Shown in pieces: positions 327 to 6,604 of a stretch of DNA of 6,604 bases; within the stretch, counting starts at the first letter, position 1; every line of letters begins with the position of its first letter. The position numbers were made by a program, and so were the translations under genes. The stretch lies in IMG/VR virus record IMGVR_UViG_2711768053_000002. One strand, written 5' to 3'. This DNA comes from a virus. Taxonomy: Duplodnaviria; Heunggongvirae; Uroviricota; Caudoviricetes. The notes under the pieces were generated by a model. That model was given only the letters and a program-made list of their open reading frames with translations, did not search any database and was not told the DNA's origin.

Positions 327-821
327 TTAATCAATCAGCGCGATGGATGCACGCGGTCGGCCCAGCAGCGCCCGCACCGCCATGGCCGCTTCAGCCAGCA
401 ACGTCCGGCGGCTTTCGCTGGCTTCTGATGATGGCTGCGCCTCGCGCCGCCCCACGCTGGCAGATTCCGGCAAAAGATCGGCCTTTGCGCGGGCATACAC
501 AGCCTTGGTGTACAGTGCTGTAATGTGGTTCTGCATCCGTTCAGGTTGTGCATCCGTATTGCGCGGCTCTGGTTGCAACACTGTGTAACCCGGAATATCA
601 GCGGCCCGGATGTGGCCCTGTTCCAGCCAGTATTCACGGCGTGCAGCCAGTTCAGTGTTAATCTCTGTTACCGCGCAAAGCAGCGCCGTCAGCACCGTTT
701 CGTGTGACGTGACGGCGGGGATGCTGCGGCTCTTTTCAAAATCGCCGGCATCAATATCCGGCCAGAATCCATCGTTCTGAATAATGGCCTGCTGATAGTG
801 AATGCTTTTCCCGTCAAACAT
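327..821 (-). CDS. L: Head completion/stabilization protein (P2 gpL family)
   Basis: The product contains FWPDID followed by a C-terminal region that matches my recollection of P2 gpL, and the gene sits after M as in P2. I chose the ATG at 821..819 (GGAG 5 nt upstream, ccGGAGtgagcATG), giving 164 aa; P2 gpL is about 169 aa. The track ORF extends to 1016, but that start would overlap M by 97 nt and add a Pro/Gly/Arg-rich N-terminus. The exact start is uncertain. Confidence 0.8.
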   Translation of the reverse strand: MFDGKSIHYQQAIIQNDGFWPDIDAGDFEKSRSIPAVTSHETVLTALLCAVTEINTELAARREYWLEQGHIRAADIPGYTVLQPEPRNTDAQPERMQNHITALYTKAVYARAKADLLPESASVGRREAQPSSEASESRRTLLAEAAMAVRALLGRPRASIALID

Positions 822-919
822 GCTCACTCCGGGGAAAGGCGGGCTGACCGGTTTCCGCAGTGTGCTGATGGCTTTTGCCGGCACACCTCCACCGCGCCCG
901 CCCGGTTGTTGGGAGTCGT

Positions 920-1630
920 TTACGTGCCCTGCAACGCGCGCAGTCTTGCGGCAATGCGCTGGCGCAGGGTTTTCACCTGAATTTTGGGATGCAGCCAGGC
1001 AGCCCGTTCCAGGCACTGGTCGGCCTGTTGCAGTCTCTCCGGATCGTTAATTGCGCTGGCCTGTGGCTTGCCGTCATCGCCGCGCAGCAGCAGGACGCCT
1101 GCAAAGCGCCAGTAGCGGGCAGCAAGGCGTTCATTCACGCGCCATTTGTCGCGGATTTTTTCAAACACCTGCTGAAAATATGGCGCGATACTGTTCCCGC
1201 GTTCAGCTTCGGTTTCTGCCCATTCAAGAATGAAATGGGCCACAAACGTTGGCAGCTCGCTTTTGAAGTTCTCCGGCGTCTTCTGTCCCTGCTCAATGGC
1301 AATGTCAGCCCACTGCAGCGCCTGCTCAAACTGCCCGGTATCGAACAGCCAGATGATGCAGTGCATCAGGATCGGGTTCTGGTACACGCGTTCCCCGTCC
1401 AGATAGGCCTGTGCATGAGGCAGCCAGCGAGGCAGCAGGACGTCACGCTTGAACGCCAGTCGGTCACTCAGCAGCTCCATGTTCCGCAGCTGCCGGATAT
1501 CGTTATCCAGCGCCAGCAGCTTAATGTGCTGACTCTCTGTGCTGATGGCGCTCCCGTCCGTTCTGGTCATGAGCGCCGCACGGCGCTCATCCATCTGTCG
1601 GGCACGTTGTCGCTGCATTGGCGTTGGCAT
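920..1630 (-). CDS. M: Terminase small (endonuclease) subunit (P2 gpM family)
   Basis: 236-aa ORF in the position of P2 gene M between N and L; size is close to P2 gpM (about 247 aa). GGAG lies 8 nt upstream of the ATG at 1630. The family call is from synteny plus general resemblance, not a search. Confidence 0.8.
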   Translation of the reverse strand: MPTPMQRQRARQMDERRAALMTRTDGSAISTESQHIKLLALDNDIRQLRNMELLSDRLAFKRDVLLPRWLPHAQAYLDGERVYQNPILMHCIIWLFDTGQFEQALQWADIAIEQGQKTPENFKSELPTFVAHFILEWAETEAERGNSIAPYFQQVFEKIRDKWRVNERLAARYWRFAGVLLLRGDDGKPQASAINDPERLQQADQCLERAAWLHPKIQVKTLRQRIAARLRALQGT

Positions 1631-1647: not shown

Positions 1648-2661
1648 TCAGGCGATGGTGACCGCAGACTCATCCACGGCGGCATACAGGTCAGGATCGC
1701 CCAGGGCGTAACCCTCATAACGCCAGTATGAGTTTTCGAACTGTTTGCGATCGCCCACATCTTCTGCCTTGCGGCGGCGGGAACCCTTCAGCGTCAGGAT
1801 CTGCAGATTTGGCAGCATGGTCACCACCATACGCTTGCCCGGCATAAACGGTGGAATGATGGCCTTGCGGCCCGCAATGTTCTTCGTCAGCAACTGTGCG
1901 GCCACTTTTTCGGTGGGCTTGTCCTCTTTGTTGTAGAGGCGCAGCTCTTCGGCCGCCACAAGGTCAGCGCCAACCAGTACGGTAAGTCGCGGGTCGTTGT
2001 GATACTGCGCCGGGATGTAAGTGCGGATCAGGTCTGAGGCCATGGCATCAAGGCCAATATAATCGCCGCCTTCGCCCAGGGTAACGGGATCTGTCAGGAT
2101 GCGGGAAGTGTTACCCTCCAGTTCGCCCCACTGACGGGCGATTTCATGCCAGCCGATGTTGACGTCTTCGCCGTTCGGGTGACTTTCCGGGTCAGAGTTT
2201 TCAGCAGCCTCTTTACCGTTAAAGCCAATGCGCAGCATATCCAGCGCAAAGTTGGTGACGGCGGCGGCGTTCATCAGGTTGAAAAATTCCTGCGGGCTGC
2301 CGGCATTCGCCCAGATGGCGAGTTGTTCCCAGGTGATCACGCAGCAGGAATCAGTTTCAACGAGTTTAAATTCGTTGCCTTTGATGCCCGAACCTTTAGC
2401 GAAACGACCGCTTTTCACGCGACCGGTGCGCAGCGTGGATTCTCCCACTGTGACGACCTGCCCCTGCGGGTGCGGAACGTCCATGCAGGTGGTGAAACCC
2501 AGAAATTCTGTGCTTTCCAGCAGGGCTTTACGCAGGGCAATGCTGCGCGGTTCGGTCAGCGAAAAGAAACGATCGCTTGATTTTCCGCAGTCGCTGAATG
2601 TTTTTTGCAGTTCGCTGATGTACTGATTAACCAGCTTTTGTGCTTCTGGTGTCATGTTCAT
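1648..2661 (-). CDS. N: Major capsid protein (P2 gpN family)
   Basis: 337-aa ORF with motifs I recall from P2 gpN (IGFNG, GW, GGDY...LDA, DP.L.VLVG) in the same order. Strong SD GGAGAG lies 6 nt upstream of the ATG at 2661, which is 14 nt after the O stop. Position between O and M matches P2. Confidence 0.9.
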   Translation of the reverse strand: MNMTPEAQKLVNQYISELQKTFSDCGKSSDRFFSLTEPRSIALRKALLESTEFLGFTTCMDVPHPQGQVVTVGESTLRTGRVKSGRFAKGSGIKGNEFKLVETDSCCVITWEQLAIWANAGSPQEFFNLMNAAAVTNFALDMLRIGFNGKEAAENSDPESHPNGEDVNIGWHEIARQWGELEGNTSRILTDPVTLGEGGDYIGLDAMASDLIRTYIPAQYHNDPRLTVLVGADLVAAEELRLYNKEDKPTEKVAAQLLTKNIAGRKAIIPPFMPGKRMVVTMLPNLQILTLKGSRRRKAEDVGDRKQFENSYWRYEGYALGDPDLYAAVDESAVTIA

Positions 2662-2675
2662 TGCGTTCTCTCCGG

Positions 2676-3566
2676 TTACACCAGGTTAAAAGTTTCGCCA
2701 CCGGCCGGATTGTTGCCCGGCAGCTTCGTGGCATCCTTGCTGAGTTCAGCAAATGCGGTTTCCATACTGGTAACCTTCTCCGCGATGGCGTTCACCGTGG
2801 AGAACAGCTTTTCGCCCTGCTCAGCAGTCAGCGTGAAGGTTTTCTCGTCCTTGTTGTTCTGTTCTGCGTTGTTCTGCCCCTGATCGCCGGCGCTGCCTTC
2901 CGGCTTGTTATCACCGGTATCTTTCGGGGCATCCTTCGCGCTGAACTGCGCGACGTTTTTTTCCAGTTTGTCCAGGCGTTCGCCGGTTTTGTTGATGGCG
3001 TCCATCAACTGACCGAACTGTTTTTCGTTCATATCGTTTTCCTGTTTGTTGCGTCCCACGGAGAAAAGGCCGGAAAAGAAACTGCGTTTGGCCTGCTCGT
3101 CGTCAGACTGCAGCGTGAAATTCAGTTCTTCTGCATTCCCCATGTGAATGGAATCTCCCTGCGAAAATTGCAGGCGGGTGGTGTTGATGCTGGCCGGTGT
3201 GTCAGTCACAGCGATACCGGATACAAAGAATTTGCCTGTTCCCAGGTAGTTTTCCTTTACCTCTATGGAGGTGAAAAGTTTTTGTCCAGCCTCGTTGGCT
3301 TCGGTCAGAAAGCGGTTGGGTATCAGGCGGGCTTTCAGCTGCACTTTATCACCGACTTTTTCCGCCTTCAGTGCATCAACAAGACCATAGTTATTGGTGA
3401 AAGCACGCCAGCCGGCGCTGGCATGAAACGGCCAGAGCATGGCGGTGTGTTCGTCCGGGTTATAAACCTCGGCGGCATCCGTCAGCCACTTTGGATCAAT
3501 TTCCCGACCGTCGATGGTGGGGCCTGAAGTGGCTACGACCACCCAGTCTGTTTTCAGTTTCGACAT
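2676..3566 (-). CDS. O: Capsid scaffolding protein with N-terminal protease-type domain (P2 gpO family)
   Basis: 296-aa ORF, first gene of the leftward operon. The N-terminal region (TIDGREIDPKWLTDAAEVYNP...) aligns with my recollection of P2 gpO, and the C-terminal third is low-complexity and charged, as expected for a scaffold. P2 gpO is about 284 aa. The SD is weak. Confidence 0.85.
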   Translation of the reverse strand: MSKLKTDWVVVATSGPTIDGREIDPKWLTDAAEVYNPDEHTAMLWPFHASAGWRAFTNNYGLVDALKAEKVGDKVQLKARLIPNRFLTEANEAGQKLFTSIEVKENYLGTGKFFVSGIAVTDTPASINTTRLQFSQGDSIHMGNAEELNFTLQSDDEQAKRSFFSGLFSVGRNKQENDMNEKQFGQLMDAINKTGERLDKLEKNVAQFSAKDAPKDTGDNKPEGSAGDQGQNNAEQNNKDEKTFTLTAEQGEKLFSTVNAIAEKVTSMETAFAELSKDATKLPGNNPAGGETFNLV

Positions 3567-3649
3567 CTGAATTAACCCGCTGATAAAAATTAAACTGGCG
3601 TTATTTAACGGAGAAATAAAAATGTCGTCATCTGATTAATTTCCGGTAC

Positions 3650-3675
3650 TTTCGGATATGCGTATATATCCGAAA
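3650..3675. promoter_or_regulatory. Perfect inverted repeat TTTCGGATAT-N6-ATATCCGAAA; candidate transcription-factor binding site
   Basis: Arms at 3650..3659 and 3666..3675 are exact reverse complements with a 6-bp spacer (GCGTAT). Imperfect symmetry extends outward (CCGGTA at 3643..3648 against TACCG at 3678..3682). The dyad centre (about 3662.5) is 96.5 bp from the O start and 98.5 bp from the P start. Confidence 0.4.
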
Positions 3676-3745
3676 AATACCGAAAAGCGATATTCGTTTT
3701 TAAAAAAGCCTTTGCTGAAAATGCATAAATTAAAATTGCATCAGC

Positions 3746-3753
3746 AGGTGAGG
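3746..3753 (+). promoter_or_regulatory. Shine-Dalgarno sequence for gene P
   Basis: AGGTGAGG lies 7 nt upstream of the P ATG at 3761. Confidence 0.6.
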
Positions 3754-3760
3754 TTTATTT

Positions 3761-5548
3761 ATGGCGTATTCTGATGAGGTGATTGCTGCTGCAAAATCGC
3801 TCTATCTGAAAAGACACACACCAAAAGAAATACAAAAGAAGCTCGGACTGAACAGCCCGCGAATTGTTTATTACTGGGCGACAAAGTTTGAGTGGTACAC
3901 ACAGCTTAATACTGAAGGCGTGGAGGATGTTATCGCCCGTCGTCTCGCTGTACTGGCGGAGCGTGATCATAAAACGCCGGAAGAGCACGATGAACTCGAT
4001 CGCCTGATTGGTCATCATGTCAAACTGATGTCGGTCAGAAACAAGCACACGGAACGAATGGCCGAGATTGAACGAATGGGAGCGGATATTCCCCAGTCTG
4101 GTCGTTATGGAAAAGAAGAACGCGGAGAAAAAGGTGCAGGTAAGAAAGAGCGCCCCCGCAAAGCTAATGACGTTTCCGGACTGACTGCTGAAAGTTTTGA
4201 GCCGTTTACAAAAAAGTTGTTTGCTTATCAGTTTCATCTGCGTGAAAACAAATTCCGCCGTGTACGCAACCTGCTTAAATCCCGCCAGATTGGGGCGACG
4301 TATTACTTCGCGTTTGAGGCATTTGAAGATGCAGTATTAACCGGCGACACACAGATATTTTTATCGGCATCAAAACGTCAGGCCGAAGTGTTCCGTACTT
4401 ATATTGTAAAAATTGCACAAACAGAGTTTGGCATTCCCATTAAAGGCAATCCGGTTAAGTTAAGTAATCTGGCTGAACTGTATTTTCTGGCGACCAACAG
4501 TAACACAGCGCAGTCAAACAGCGGTCACCTGTATATTGATGAATACCTGTGGATCCCCGGTTTTCGCCGTCTCAATGAAGTGGCATCAGGGATGGCCACC
4601 CATAAACACTGGCGCATTACCTATTTCTCCACGCCGTCATCCAAAACACACCAGGGTTACCCGTTCTGGTCTGGCGATGAATGGCGCAAAGGCGATCCGA
4701 AACGAAAAGGGGTTGAGTTTCCGTCCTTTGATGAGCTGCGCGATGGTGGGCGTGAATGTCCGGATGGTCAGTGGCGCTATGTGGTTACGCTGGAAGATGC
4801 CATTGCCGGCGGCTTTAACCTTGCTGATATCAACGAGCTGCGCGAGCGATACAACGAAACAGCGTTCAATATGCTGTTTATGTGTGTGTTTGTGGATGAC
4901 AAAGAGAGCGTCTTTAAATTCGATGATCTTGTGCGTTGTGGTGTTGATGTCAGTACGTGGGAGGATTTTCATCCGGAAGAGCCCATGCCATTTGGTAACC
5001 GTGAGGTGTGGGGCGGCTTTGACCCTGCGCGCTCCGGCGATAACGCCACATTTGTTGTGCTGGCACCGCCTCTGGTTGCGGCAGAACGATTCCGCGTGCT
5101 GGAAAAACACCACTGGCGCAGCATGTCATTCCAGTTTATGGCAGAGCGTATCCGCAGCATTAAGGCACGCTATAACATGACGTTTATCGGCATTGACGTC
5201 ACCGGTCTTGGCTACGGTGTCTTTGAGCTGGTTCAGGGATTTGCCCGCCGTGAAACTGTGGCCATCCATTACAGCGTGGAATCCAAAAACCGCCTGGTGA
5301 TGAAGATGCTGGATCTGATTTACGCCAACCGTATTGAGTGGGATGAGGAAGCCACGGACATTCCGGCATCGTTCCTGGCCATTCGCCAGGAATCCACCAA
5401 CAGCGGCAATAAAGTCACTTTCACAGCCGAACGTAGCGAAGAAACCGGGCACGCTGACATCTTCTTTGCCATAGCTCATGCCGCAAGTAATGAACCCCTG
5501 AACTATAAGCACAAGCGCAAATCAACATGGATCCTGTCAGATGAGTAA
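3761..5548 (+). CDS. P: Terminase large (ATPase) subunit (P2 gpP family)
   Basis: 595-aa ORF with a strong SD; P2 gpP is about 590 aa. It is followed by the portal gene with an 8-nt overlap and is divergent from O, as in P2. The N-terminus has an HTH-like segment (TPKEIQKKLGLNSPRIVYYWATKF). Confidence 0.9.
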   Translation: MAYSDEVIAAAKSLYLKRHTPKEIQKKLGLNSPRIVYYWATKFEWYTQLNTEGVEDVIARRLAVLAERDHKTPEEHDELDRLIGHHVKLMSVRNKHTERMAEIERMGADIPQSGRYGKEERGEKGAGKKERPRKANDVSGLTAESFEPFTKKLFAYQFHLRENKFRRVRNLLKSRQIGATYYFAFEAFEDAVLTGDTQIFLSASKRQAEVFRTYIVKIAQTEFGIPIKGNPVKLSNLAELYFLATNSNTAQSNSGHLYIDEYLWIPGFRRLNEVASGMATHKHWRITYFSTPSSKTHQGYPFWSGDEWRKGDPKRKGVEFPSFDELRDGGRECPDGQWRYVVTLEDAIAGGFNLADINELRERYNETAFNMLFMCVFVDDKESVFKFDDLVRCGVDVSTWEDFHPEEPMPFGNREVWGGFDPARSGDNATFVVLAPPLVAAERFRVLEKHHWRSMSFQFMAERIRSIKARYNMTFIGIDVTGLGYGVFELVQGFARRETVAIHYSVESKNRLVMKMLDLIYANRIEWDEEATDIPASFLAIRQESTNSGNKVTFTAERSEETGHADIFFAIAHAASNEPLNYKHKRKSTWILSDE

Positions 5549-6575
5549 AAAGAAAAAATACCCCGTGTTACACGATGGCGTGGCAAAAAAAACAGCCAGC
5601 AAAATGACGTTTATCGAATTTGGTGACCCGGAACCGGTCGCTGCATGGGGCTGTTATTACGGCTCGCTCTGGGATGGCTATAACGGCTGGTACACGCCGC
5701 CCATTGAGCGCATGGATCTCGCCATGTTGTCCAATATCGCACCGTATCACGGCGCGGTATTGCGTGCGCGCGTGAATATGATCATGCAGGGTTTTCGGGG
5801 TGGTGGTGGTATGACACACGCCGCCATGGCGGCAGCAGTGACCAATCTGCTGATATTCGGGGATATGGGGCTGCTTAAAGTGCGCAATGGCTTCGGGCGG
5901 GTGGTGCGCCTGCATACGTTGCCTTCTCTGTACCTGCGACGCAACAACGAAGGTGGCACGGTGATTGTGCAGGCGGCACTGGAAGATCTCGTTTACTCGC
6001 CAGGCGAAGTGGTGTTCGTGGCCATTTATGACCCACAACAGCAGGTTTACGGTGTCCCGGATTATATTCATGGAATGGAATCTGCCATGCTGAATGTGGA
6101 TGCCACCCGCTTTCGCCGCAAGTATTACAAGAACGGCGCACATCTGGGTTATATCCTGTATTCCACTGACCCGGACATGGATCCCGAGCTCGAGGCGGAA
6201 TTTCGTAAAAAGATAGAGGCGTCAAAAGGGGCGGGCAATTTTAAATCCATGTTTATCAATATACCTGGCGGAGACAAAGAAGGCGTTAAGGTGATCCCTA
6301 TCGGGGATTCAGGTACAAAAGATGAGTTCCTGAATATAAAAACCATCAGTGCCCAGGATCAGCTCGTTGCGCACCGTTTTCCACCCGGACTTGCCGGCAT
6401 CATTCCCGCAAATACGGCTGGGCTTGGTGACCCACTGAAATCCCGCGAGGCATATTACAGGGATGAGGTTATCCCGATGCGCCGCCTGATTATGGAGGGG
6501 ATCAACAGCGACCCGGATATCAGACGACTGGGGGAGGTGAAATTTATTCTTGATTTTGATGAACCCATGGAGTGA
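5541..6575 (+). CDS. Q: Portal (capsid vertex) protein (P2 gpQ family)
   Basis: 344-aa ORF, the same length I recall for P2 gpQ, immediately downstream of P and overlapping it (ATGAGTAA: Q start at 5541, P stop at 5546..5548). It ends 29 nt before the window edge. Confidence 0.9.
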   Translation: MSKKKKYPVLHDGVAKKTASKMTFIEFGDPEPVAAWGCYYGSLWDGYNGWYTPPIERMDLAMLSNIAPYHGAVLRARVNMIMQGFRGGGGMTHAAMAAAVTNLLIFGDMGLLKVRNGFGRVVRLHTLPSLYLRRNNEGGTVIVQAALEDLVYSPGEVVFVAIYDPQQQVYGVPDYIHGMESAMLNVDATRFRRKYYKNGAHLGYILYSTDPDMDPELEAEFRKKIEASKGAGNFKSMFINIPGGDKEGVKVIPIGDSGTKDEFLNIKTISAQDQLVAHRFPPGLAGIIPANTAGLGDPLKSREAYYRDEVIPMRRLIMEGINSDPDIRRLGEVKFILDFDEPME

Positions 6576-6604
6576 TGTGCGGCATGGGGAAAGAGCGGGT
6601 AAAA

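Follow-up and report, generated by a model that had tools for sequence, protein, structure and literature searches.

In phage P2 the divergent operons P-Q and O-N-M-L are separated by a gap with a single dyad, and their weak promoters depend on a phage-encoded activator with a C4 zinc finger, Ogr. Late transcription of P2 is blocked in an rpoA109 host. The P2 record (NC_001895) annotates one feature at 3057-3087, 'activator binding site; pO, pP promoters', which is common to both promoters. This site is centred 55-56 bp from the annotated starts of the P operon (3016) and the O operon (3127), and its half-site triplets are centred at -48 and -63. The P2 ogr gene follows the tail operon and is transcribed from its own promoter and, late, via read-through from the upstream late operon. 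In all, P2 has four late promoters (PMC3931495).

Comparable arrangements are recorded for other members of the family. The record of phage 186 (NC_001317) contains one protein_bind feature for the B protein, a member of the Ogr family, at 3798-3817, with the legend 'activation of pV and p12 promoters'. Its sequence, GTTGTGTGGGCGGTTGTCCA, is of the TGT-N12-CCA type, as is the dyad of P2. For the Stenotrophomonas phage Smp131 it was proposed in silico that one dyad (nt 4381-4398), of the TGT-N12-ACA type, serves the divergent promoters PP' and PO'; four late promoters were predicted, and the Ogr-like protein carries a CX2CX22CX4C motif (PMC3931495).

The late promoters of the HP1/K139-type phages have so far merely been guessed. 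The HP2 record (NC_003315) gives 12555-12610 as a 'repeat_region ... most likely contains promoters for late genes'. The K139 record lists two late promoters only, P16 and P17, and one terminator that closes the long operon. The putative -10 and -35 sigma-70 hexamers of P16 were set on or against the half-sites of a dyad that we discuss below as an operator. Neither the HP2 nor the K139 element is described as an activator operator. A literature search found the motif, its binder and the late promoters of HP1/K139 undescribed, although the original papers on HP2 and K139 and the review of P2 were outside that search and an earlier description is possible. The same search found no binding, footprint or start-site experiments for this phage or its relatives.

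Here we describe the gap between the O and P genes of an HP1/K139-like prophage and its relationship to the late-control regions of P2, 186 and related phages.

The O/P gap and its inverted repeat

The window (the whole stretch of DNA analysed, 6,604 nt) contains six large ORFs, all of them P2-family head and packaging genes. The features are as follows, with the gene that follows Q in the prophage added in the last line.

327-1016, minus strand: L, P2-family head/packaging ORF
920-1630, minus strand: M, small terminase
1648-2661, minus strand: N, major capsid
2676-3566, minus strand: O, capsid scaffold (GPO family; Pfam PF05929, 138 bits; RefSeq annotation of the identical prophage), which opens the leftward late operon
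3761-5548, plus strand: P, large terminase (Pfam Terminase_6N, Terminase_6C and Terminase_5; RefSeq annotation of the identical prophage), which opens the rightward late operon P-Q-(ogr-like)
5541-6575, plus strand: Q, portal (Pfam; RefSeq annotation of the identical prophage)
from would-be window position 6642 (L024 23342-23599): ogr/Delta-like gene, directly after Q

The window sequence is identical to that of a prophage of E. coli SC418, which is inserted beside pdxB, and a prophage of E. albertii NBRC 107761 has 99% identity to it at the protein level. Related prophages are carried by 41 of 5426 complete E. coli genomes. Because the phage collection gave no megablast match to the whole window, relatives were sought through their proteins. 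The terminase is at most 60% identical to those of known Peduoviridae, the nearest being from Yersinia phage vB_YenM_324, Cronobacter phage ESSI-2 and Aeromonas, Vibrio and Haemophilus HP2-type phages. The prophage is an HP1/K139-like member of the P2 family (Peduoviridae), present in E. coli and E. albertii.

The O/P gap (3567-3760) is 194 bp long and has a G+C content of 32%, compared with 53% across the whole window. It contains an inverted repeat with the following parts.

3650-3675: inner dyad, TTTCGGATAT-N6-ATATCCGAAA, with 10-nt arms at 3650-3659 and 3666-3675
3651-3655 and 3670-3674: conserved core of the dyad, TTCGG and CCGAA separated by N14, centre 3662.5
3641-3645: left half-site of the outer pair, TTCCG (one mismatch to the consensus TTCGG), spaced about 10 bp from its inner neighbour
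3680-3684: right half-site of the outer pair, CCGAA, spaced 10 bp from its inner neighbour

The preliminary description of this DNA had reported that the gap lacks a TGT-N12-ACA element, that it holds a perfect 10-bp inverted repeat at 3650..3675, and that the repeat lies within about 1 bp of the midpoint between the two start codons. All three observations are borne out. The plus strand of the gap has TGT once (3623) and ACA nowhere, which makes TGT-N12-ACA impossible on either strand; the triplet 12 bp past the sole TGT is AAT. The arms are 100% complementary and 6 nt apart, and the dyad centre at 3662.5 compares with 3663.5 for the midpoint of the start codons of O (3566) and P (3761). Further flanking copies of CCGAAA/TTTCGG had also been noted, of which the right one is exact (CCGAAA at 3680) and the left one is imperfect (TTTCCGG, 3640-3646). 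The symmetry about the start codons is not conserved, the distance from the dyad to the P ATG ranging from 88 to 134 bp among close relatives; the symmetry about the -10 elements described below is conserved.

Taken by itself the palindrome is only modestly significant. Of 2000 dinucleotide-preserving shuffles of the gap, 1.45% contain a perfect inverted repeat with arms of 10 bp or more and a loop no longer than 20 bp. The palindrome is judged to be real because it is conserved in relatives. Two other kinds of element were considered and rejected. Rfam gave only a meaningless sub-threshold match for an RNA element, and the dyad would be untranscribed under the promoter model presented here. 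A consensus scan of the gap region found no terminator.

The relatives used for comparison were chosen through protein homology, independently of the motif. The TTCGG-N14-CCGAA core is retained in eight of the nine, and HP2 retains only CGG-N14-CCG. Among E. coli prophages the core is found in gaps whose regions are 83% and 71% identical to the window and in one that is far more distant. It is also present in the O/P gaps of Edwardsiella anguillarum and Edwardsiella ictaluri (terminase 75% identical), Yersinia massiliensis, phages vB_YenM_324 and ESSI-2, Aeromonas phage A051 and Vibrio phage K139, where the gap reads TTCGGATAT-N6-ATATCCGAA with outer half-sites in addition. The annotated HP2 repeat is the same element in the same gap. 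It forms a 21-bp perfect inverted repeat with CGGATA-type half-sites around CGG-N14-CCG, and it has five half-sites (three plus two). In Salmonella phage SW3 the dyad is degenerate, with the inner right half-site affected.

A second set of relatives came from a scan of IMG/VR with the pattern TTCGGATA-N8-TATCCGAA, which has 16 specified bases. Sixty-six of the 80 loci that matched adjoin O and/or P homologues. In 63 the match falls between the homologues of O (31-100% identical) and P (40-100% identical), and three more adjoin O or P alone on incomplete loci. The remaining 14 matches have neither an O or P gene nor outer half-sites, and their count is about that expected by chance. The array is present even where the scaffold protein encoded by O is only about 31% identical.

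An alignment on the dyad centre was made from 23 non-redundant IMG/VR loci and the nine independently found relatives. Outward from the centre, TATCCGAA occupies positions 5-12 on either side, and a second CCGAA at positions 18-22 is 70-90% conserved though it lies outside the search pattern. The six central bases vary in nearly every relative (GCGTAT, GTGCAT, TTGTGG, CGCGGG, GGCGGG and others), and in the drifting flanks column identity is about 40-50%. The preliminary description had proposed to test whether the dyad is conserved among related O/P gaps while the flanks drift, and this is the pattern seen. It had centred on the 26-bp palindrome, whereas the relatives share an array of four half-sites (3641-3684) that recur every 10 bp and are inverted about the centre. 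Only this phage and its close kin have perfect 10-bp arms, and the conserved unit is TTCGG(ATA)-N8-(TAT)CCGAA together with the outer half-sites. The putative functional unit is the full array TTCGG-N5-TTCGG-N14-CCGAA-N5-CCGAA, which reaches beyond the perfect palindrome on both sides.

The HP1/K139-lineage O/P operator, as we call the TTCGG-N14-CCGAA array, is a class introduced here rather than a curated family. The window has the core, the outer half-sites (the left one with one mismatch) and -10 candidates at 55-60 bp. In the complete prophage, of about 34 kb, there is a single site at one mismatch or fewer, and TTCGG-N12-16-CCGAA has one exact match. Matches with two mismatches number 14, compared with 15.8 in shuffles; they are at chance level and lie inside genes. 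Single half-site matches are likewise at chance level, and CGG-N14-CCG alone, with 20 matches in the prophage, is too unspecific. No further sites were found upstream of the other late gene blocks of the complete prophage. Given the lack of a second site, the leftward head-lysis-tail cluster of about 19 kb is probably one operon, with all late genes under the single site.

Predicted promoters and a candidate activator

A consensus scan of 3500-3830 found no sigma-70 consensus promoter, as is expected if the promoters are activator-dependent. Weak promoter elements were located by their position relative to the dyad.

3608-3603, minus strand: predicted -10 of PO, TTAAAT, 55-60 bp from the dyad centre; predicted start about 3596
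3631-3626, minus strand: weak -35-like element of PO, ATGACG, 17 bp upstream of the predicted -10
3717-3722, plus strand: predicted -10 of PP, GAAAAT, 55-60 bp from the dyad centre, with the start predicted near 3729 and no -35 conserved

The position of these elements is conserved in relatives. Counted from the centre, TAnnnT starts at position 55 on the O side in 13 of 30 representatives; on the P side, 9 of 30 have it at position 55 and four more at position 56. The count at every other position between 20 and 99 stays below 4. The P-side equivalents are GAGAAT in Edwardsiella, AATAAT in L064 (a sister E. coli prophage) and TATCAT, TACACT or CATAAT in distant relatives. The sole remnant of a -35 is a TG that is conserved 33-34 positions from the centre and is confined to the O side. 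Both promoters thus have a positionally conserved -10 and a poor -35, the features of weak promoters. The top-scoring -10-like hexamers in the gap lie at 69-74 bp on both sides (TAAAAT, 3731-3736; TTTAAT, 3594-3589 on the minus strand) and would put the starts at about 3743 and 3582, and the register of 55-60 bp is preferred over them only because it is conserved in distant relatives.

A -10 weight matrix was used to find the best hexamer within positions 39-70 from the dyad centre. Of the 49 sides that have an outer half-site, 38 place it at position 55 or 56. In five sides it falls at position 45, and all five score as being without an outer half-site; these are both sides of L091, both sides of L092 and the O side of L104. 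The predicted -10 shifts by whole helical turns with the width of the array. The dyad centre is predicted to be 67 bp from both starts here and 57 bp in the relatives without outer half-sites. Because the -10 is nearer (45-50 bp) where the outer half-site is missing, the nearest half-site would stand at about -47 from the inferred start. The predicted leaders are about 30 nt long.

The preliminary description had pointed to the late activator gene as something to be identified elsewhere in the prophage, and a candidate is found after Q. The ogr/Delta-like gene begins 66 bp downstream of Q, 38 bp beyond the end of the window. Its 85-aa product (WP_001254198.1), annotated as an ogr/Delta-like zinc finger in the identical E. 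coli prophage, matches Pfam PF04606 at 48.3 bits (cut-off 26.3) over profile positions 1-47 of 47. The cysteines (Cys8, Cys11, Cys34 and Cys39 of MRRQKARCHCCG...YYRCTRLECGH) are spaced C-X2-C-X22-C-X4-C, which is the motif stated for P2 Ogr (PMC3931495). An Ogr-like gene also follows Q in the E. coli, Edwardsiella, Y. massiliensis, YenM_324, ESSI-2, K139, HP2 and A051 relatives; the records of HP2 and Aeromonas A051 leave this ORF unannotated. Homology and the conserved position of the gene suggest that the protein activates late transcription. A PDB search for the Ogr family returned no solved structure, only weak zinc-ribbon matches to TFIIS/RPB9.

The type of Ogr-like protein and the type of dyad appear to vary together, as a coarse correlation. 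P2 and 186 have the TGT-N12-CCA dyad, and the TTCGG dyad accompanies proteins of the ...CGH(T/S)(F/W)V... type. Aliivibrio prophages have a different Ogr-like protein and the dyad TTCTATAT-N5-ATATAGAA, and Pseudoalteromonas phage PY3 has yet another and the dyad TTCCTA-N11-TAGGAA. A class of the form GCAATCGTAGAG-N5-CTCTACGATTGC is also among the dyads seen.

The proposed operator and alternative readings

We think it likely, from sequence comparison, that the array at 3641-3684 is the operator of the prophage's own Ogr-type activator and serves to switch on both late operons. WP_001254198.1 would bind the array, and the bound activator would turn on PO and PP, two weak divergent promoters, together. 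The single site would govern all the late genes of the prophage, and the order P-Q-ogr would permit positive feedback like that of P2. We infer the identity of the binder, activation upon binding, the start sites and the stoichiometry. The proximal half-site at about -47, close to the ACA half-site of P2 at -48, suggests an upstream contact with RNA polymerase of the same kind as in P2. Against this proposal stand the predicted position of the centre at -67, compared with -55.5 in P2, the imperfect left outer half-site, the higher-scoring hexamers at 69-74 bp and the degenerate inner right half-site of phage SW3. One symmetric site for both late operons, with a specificity unlike that of P2 Ogr, was also the proposal of the preliminary description, and it appears to be the best reading of the conserved dyad, the symmetric -10-like hexamers and the sole site. 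Its suggestion of an activator or repressor with non-Ogr specificity would stand as far as the differing specificity is concerned; the likely binder would itself belong to the Ogr/Delta family, and a repressor is unlikely.

The 10-bp period of the half-sites resembles that of tandem-repeat activator sites, and the centre of each proximal pair lies some 52 bp before the predicted start, near the -55 of P2. This would be accounted for by two abutting independent sites, with the left pair (3641-3655) acting on PO only, the right pair (3670-3684) acting on PP only, and the palindrome arising as a by-product. We regard this as unlikely. Almost all relatives keep the N14 between the inner half-sites, also those reached independently of the search pattern, which indicates a constraint across the centre. 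Moreover, L091 and L092 keep only the inner dyad and have their -10 elements 10 bp closer on both sides, so one dyad must serve both promoters there, as is annotated for P2 and 186. A palindrome that arose by chance in an A+T-rich spacer and is without function would be compatible with the shuffle frequency given above. However, the same half-sites recur with the same spacing in the same gap at an O identity of about 31%, the matches are concentrated at the O/P gap, and the flanking -10 elements stand in a fixed register. The comparative data have already effectively refuted this explanation.

A regulator of the Rrf2 family is encoded next to ogr in this prophage and was considered as a candidate binder. 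Binding by a protein other than Ogr (a host factor, a nucleoid protein, an Rrf2-family or other phage regulator), perhaps with a repressing effect, is nevertheless quite improbable. The Rrf2-family gene was rejected as the source of the binder, since it is absent from relatives that retain the dyad. Its place is taken by a hypothetical protein in L026, by a MarR-family gene in L028 and by other genes in K139 and HP2. Neither the Rrf2 and MarR neighbours nor the early and immunity genes are conserved across these phages, and immunity and early regulators differ where the dyad does not. The hosts span Haemophilus, Vibrio, Aeromonas and Enterobacteria, for which one host factor is less parsimonious than a conserved phage regulator. 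Finally, promoters without a consensus -35 need an activator.

The proposal of an Ogr-type operator can be widened to the HP1/K139 branch as a whole, and here we hold it to be only somewhat more probable than the reverse. The branch would have a distinct class of Ogr-type activator with an unrelated operator, built of up to four or five TATCCGAA half-sites that have a 10-bp period and are inverted about N14. The width of the operator would set the -10 at 45 or 55 bp, and one site would fire two promoters and control every late gene. Together with the dyads of Aliivibrio, Pseudoalteromonas and Sphingomonas, these phages would form a series of co-evolved pairs of zinc finger and operator.

Relationship to P2, 186 and related phages

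If the proposal is correct, it provides a testable operator and promoter map for late control in HP1/HP2, K139, ESSI-2 and the Yersinia, Edwardsiella, Aeromonas and E. coli/E. albertii prophages, a large group that is widespread within the P2 family. It would mean that DNA specificity has diversified within the Ogr/Delta family, whereas the plan of a single site shared by two divergent promoters has been kept. It would also bear on cross-activation between helper prophages and satellites, on the annotation of prophages and on possible orthogonal pairs of activator and promoter.

The preliminary description had presented the shared dyad as a departure from P2. This does not hold, because the GenBank records of P2 and 186 each annotate one site for both promoters, and a shared central site is therefore the normal design of the family. 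As in P2, one dyad lies between divergent P-Q and O-N-M-L operons with weak promoters, and the phage encodes a C4 zinc-finger protein, here a candidate activator. As in 186, a single central activator site would serve two divergent head-gene promoters. The in silico proposal for Smp131 is of the same kind, with one dyad for two divergent promoters and an Ogr-like protein of the same cysteine spacing. HP2 and K139 carry this element at the same place and, like the present prophage, have an Ogr-like zinc-finger gene after Q.

The differences concern the operator, the number of promoters and the place of ogr. The recognition sequence is TGT-N12-(A/C)CA in P2 and TTCGG-N14-CCGAA here, and the sites of 186 (TGT-N12-CCA type) and Smp131 (TGT-N12-ACA type) likewise differ from the TTCGG type. 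P2 has two half-sites where this phage has four, and the distance from dyad centre to start is 55.5 bp in P2 compared with a predicted 67 bp here, a distance unlike that of P2 because the number of half-sites differs. The four late promoters of P2, and the four predicted for Smp131, contrast with what is apparently only one pair in this prophage, and ogr, which follows the tail operon in P2, here follows Q. The known logic of P2-type late control is unchanged by these differences. The design is homologous to that of P2 and 186, from which it differs in recognition sequence and array width.

Sequence elements on either side of the dyad

The predicted operator of the two late operons has as its core the dyad at 3650-3675, centred at 3662.5, and the predicted -10 elements in the conserved register lie 55-60 bp from that centre (3603-3608 on the minus strand and 3717-3722 on the plus strand). 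A second pair of -10-like hexamers is also placed symmetrically about the dyad. These are considered candidate alternative promoters because they outscore the conserved-register pair. The O side alone has a conserved TG at 33-34 bp from the dyad centre, where the plus strand reads GCA(C/T). It looks like a leftover -35, and the confinement of this remnant to the O side implies that the two late promoters are not fully symmetric.

Elements flanking the dyad in the window
3589-3594, minus strand: alternative -10-like hexamer TTTAAT, 69-74 bp from the dyad centre
3626-3631, O side: conserved TG element, at the same position in relatives
3731-3736, plus strand: alternative -10-like hexamer TAAAAT, 69-74 bp from the dyad centre

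In Vibrio phage K139 (NC_003313) a putative sigma-70 promoter, P16, is annotated at 15488-15519, with hexamers that overlap or adjoin the dyad half-sites. The putative -10 (15488-15493) lies on the left TTCGG half-site and the putative -35 (15514-15519) abuts the right CCGAA (15508-15512). The annotated hexamers are probably operator rather than promoter.

In the sister E. coli prophages L025 and L027 the P leader is longer than in the window by a 36-bp insertion (at ~4325-4350 of those two loci), which holds a tandem repeat, two copies of TTACGGAACG. The dyad centre is consequently 134 bp from the P ATG in these prophages versus 98 bp in the window. A 10-nt inverted repeat with 90% complementarity (CATAAATTAA at 3724-3733 and TTTATTTATG at 3754-3763) has one arm near the beginning of the leader and the other at the P start codon, and might form a leader hairpin provided that transcription starts upstream of 3724.

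The ogr-like gene and its surroundings

The gene for the presumed late activator, an ogr/Delta-like zinc-finger protein, is placed identically after the portal gene Q in all relatives examined. In the identical prophage of E. coli SC418 (L024) the Q-ogr spacer is 66 bp, and window 6576-6604 is its start. The order P-Q-ogr makes read-through from the late P promoter possible; late P transcripts could thus reach the ogr-like gene, which would allow positive feedback. The spacer also includes a TAAAAT, which could be the gene's own -10. Public records of Haemophilus phage HP2 and Aeromonas phage A051 lack the presumed activator, and an unannotated Ogr/Delta-type ORF is present 3' of the portal gene in both.

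Genes and hairpins
L024 23342-23599: ogr/Delta-like zinc-finger gene, which would fall at window 6642-6899, just beyond the window end
HP2 (NC_003315) 6876-7151, plus strand: zinc-finger ORF, 49 bits against PF04606
A051 ~5391-5642, plus strand: zinc-finger ORF
L024 13394-13463: hairpin GGCTTAATAAGCC-N8-GGCTTATTAAGC, within the long late cluster at the tail chaperone/peptidase gene junction
L024 23600-23667: hairpin with a 17-bp stem, separating the convergent ogr and Rrf2 genes

The two hairpins are both strong, and the one with the 17-bp stem probably acts as a bidirectional terminator. The stretch of the prophage that separates ogr from the replication gene (L024 23668-25619) encodes an Rrf2-family regulator, a ParM segregation protein and a plasmid partitioning/stability gene, an unusual cargo for a P2-like prophage.

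Dyads of other Peduoviridae lineages

The O/P gaps of other Peduoviridae lineages contain central dyads of different sequence (loci L006, L008, L011, L013, L021 ~9855-9890; L017, L023 9890-9910; L117 ~2390-2415).

Dyads in the O/P gap
Sphingomonas: GCAATCGTAGAG-N5-CTCTACGATTGC
Aliivibrio: TTCTATAT-N5-ATATAGAA
Pseudoalteromonas: TTCCTA-N11-TAGGAA

These differences suggest activator/operator pairs particular to each lineage.
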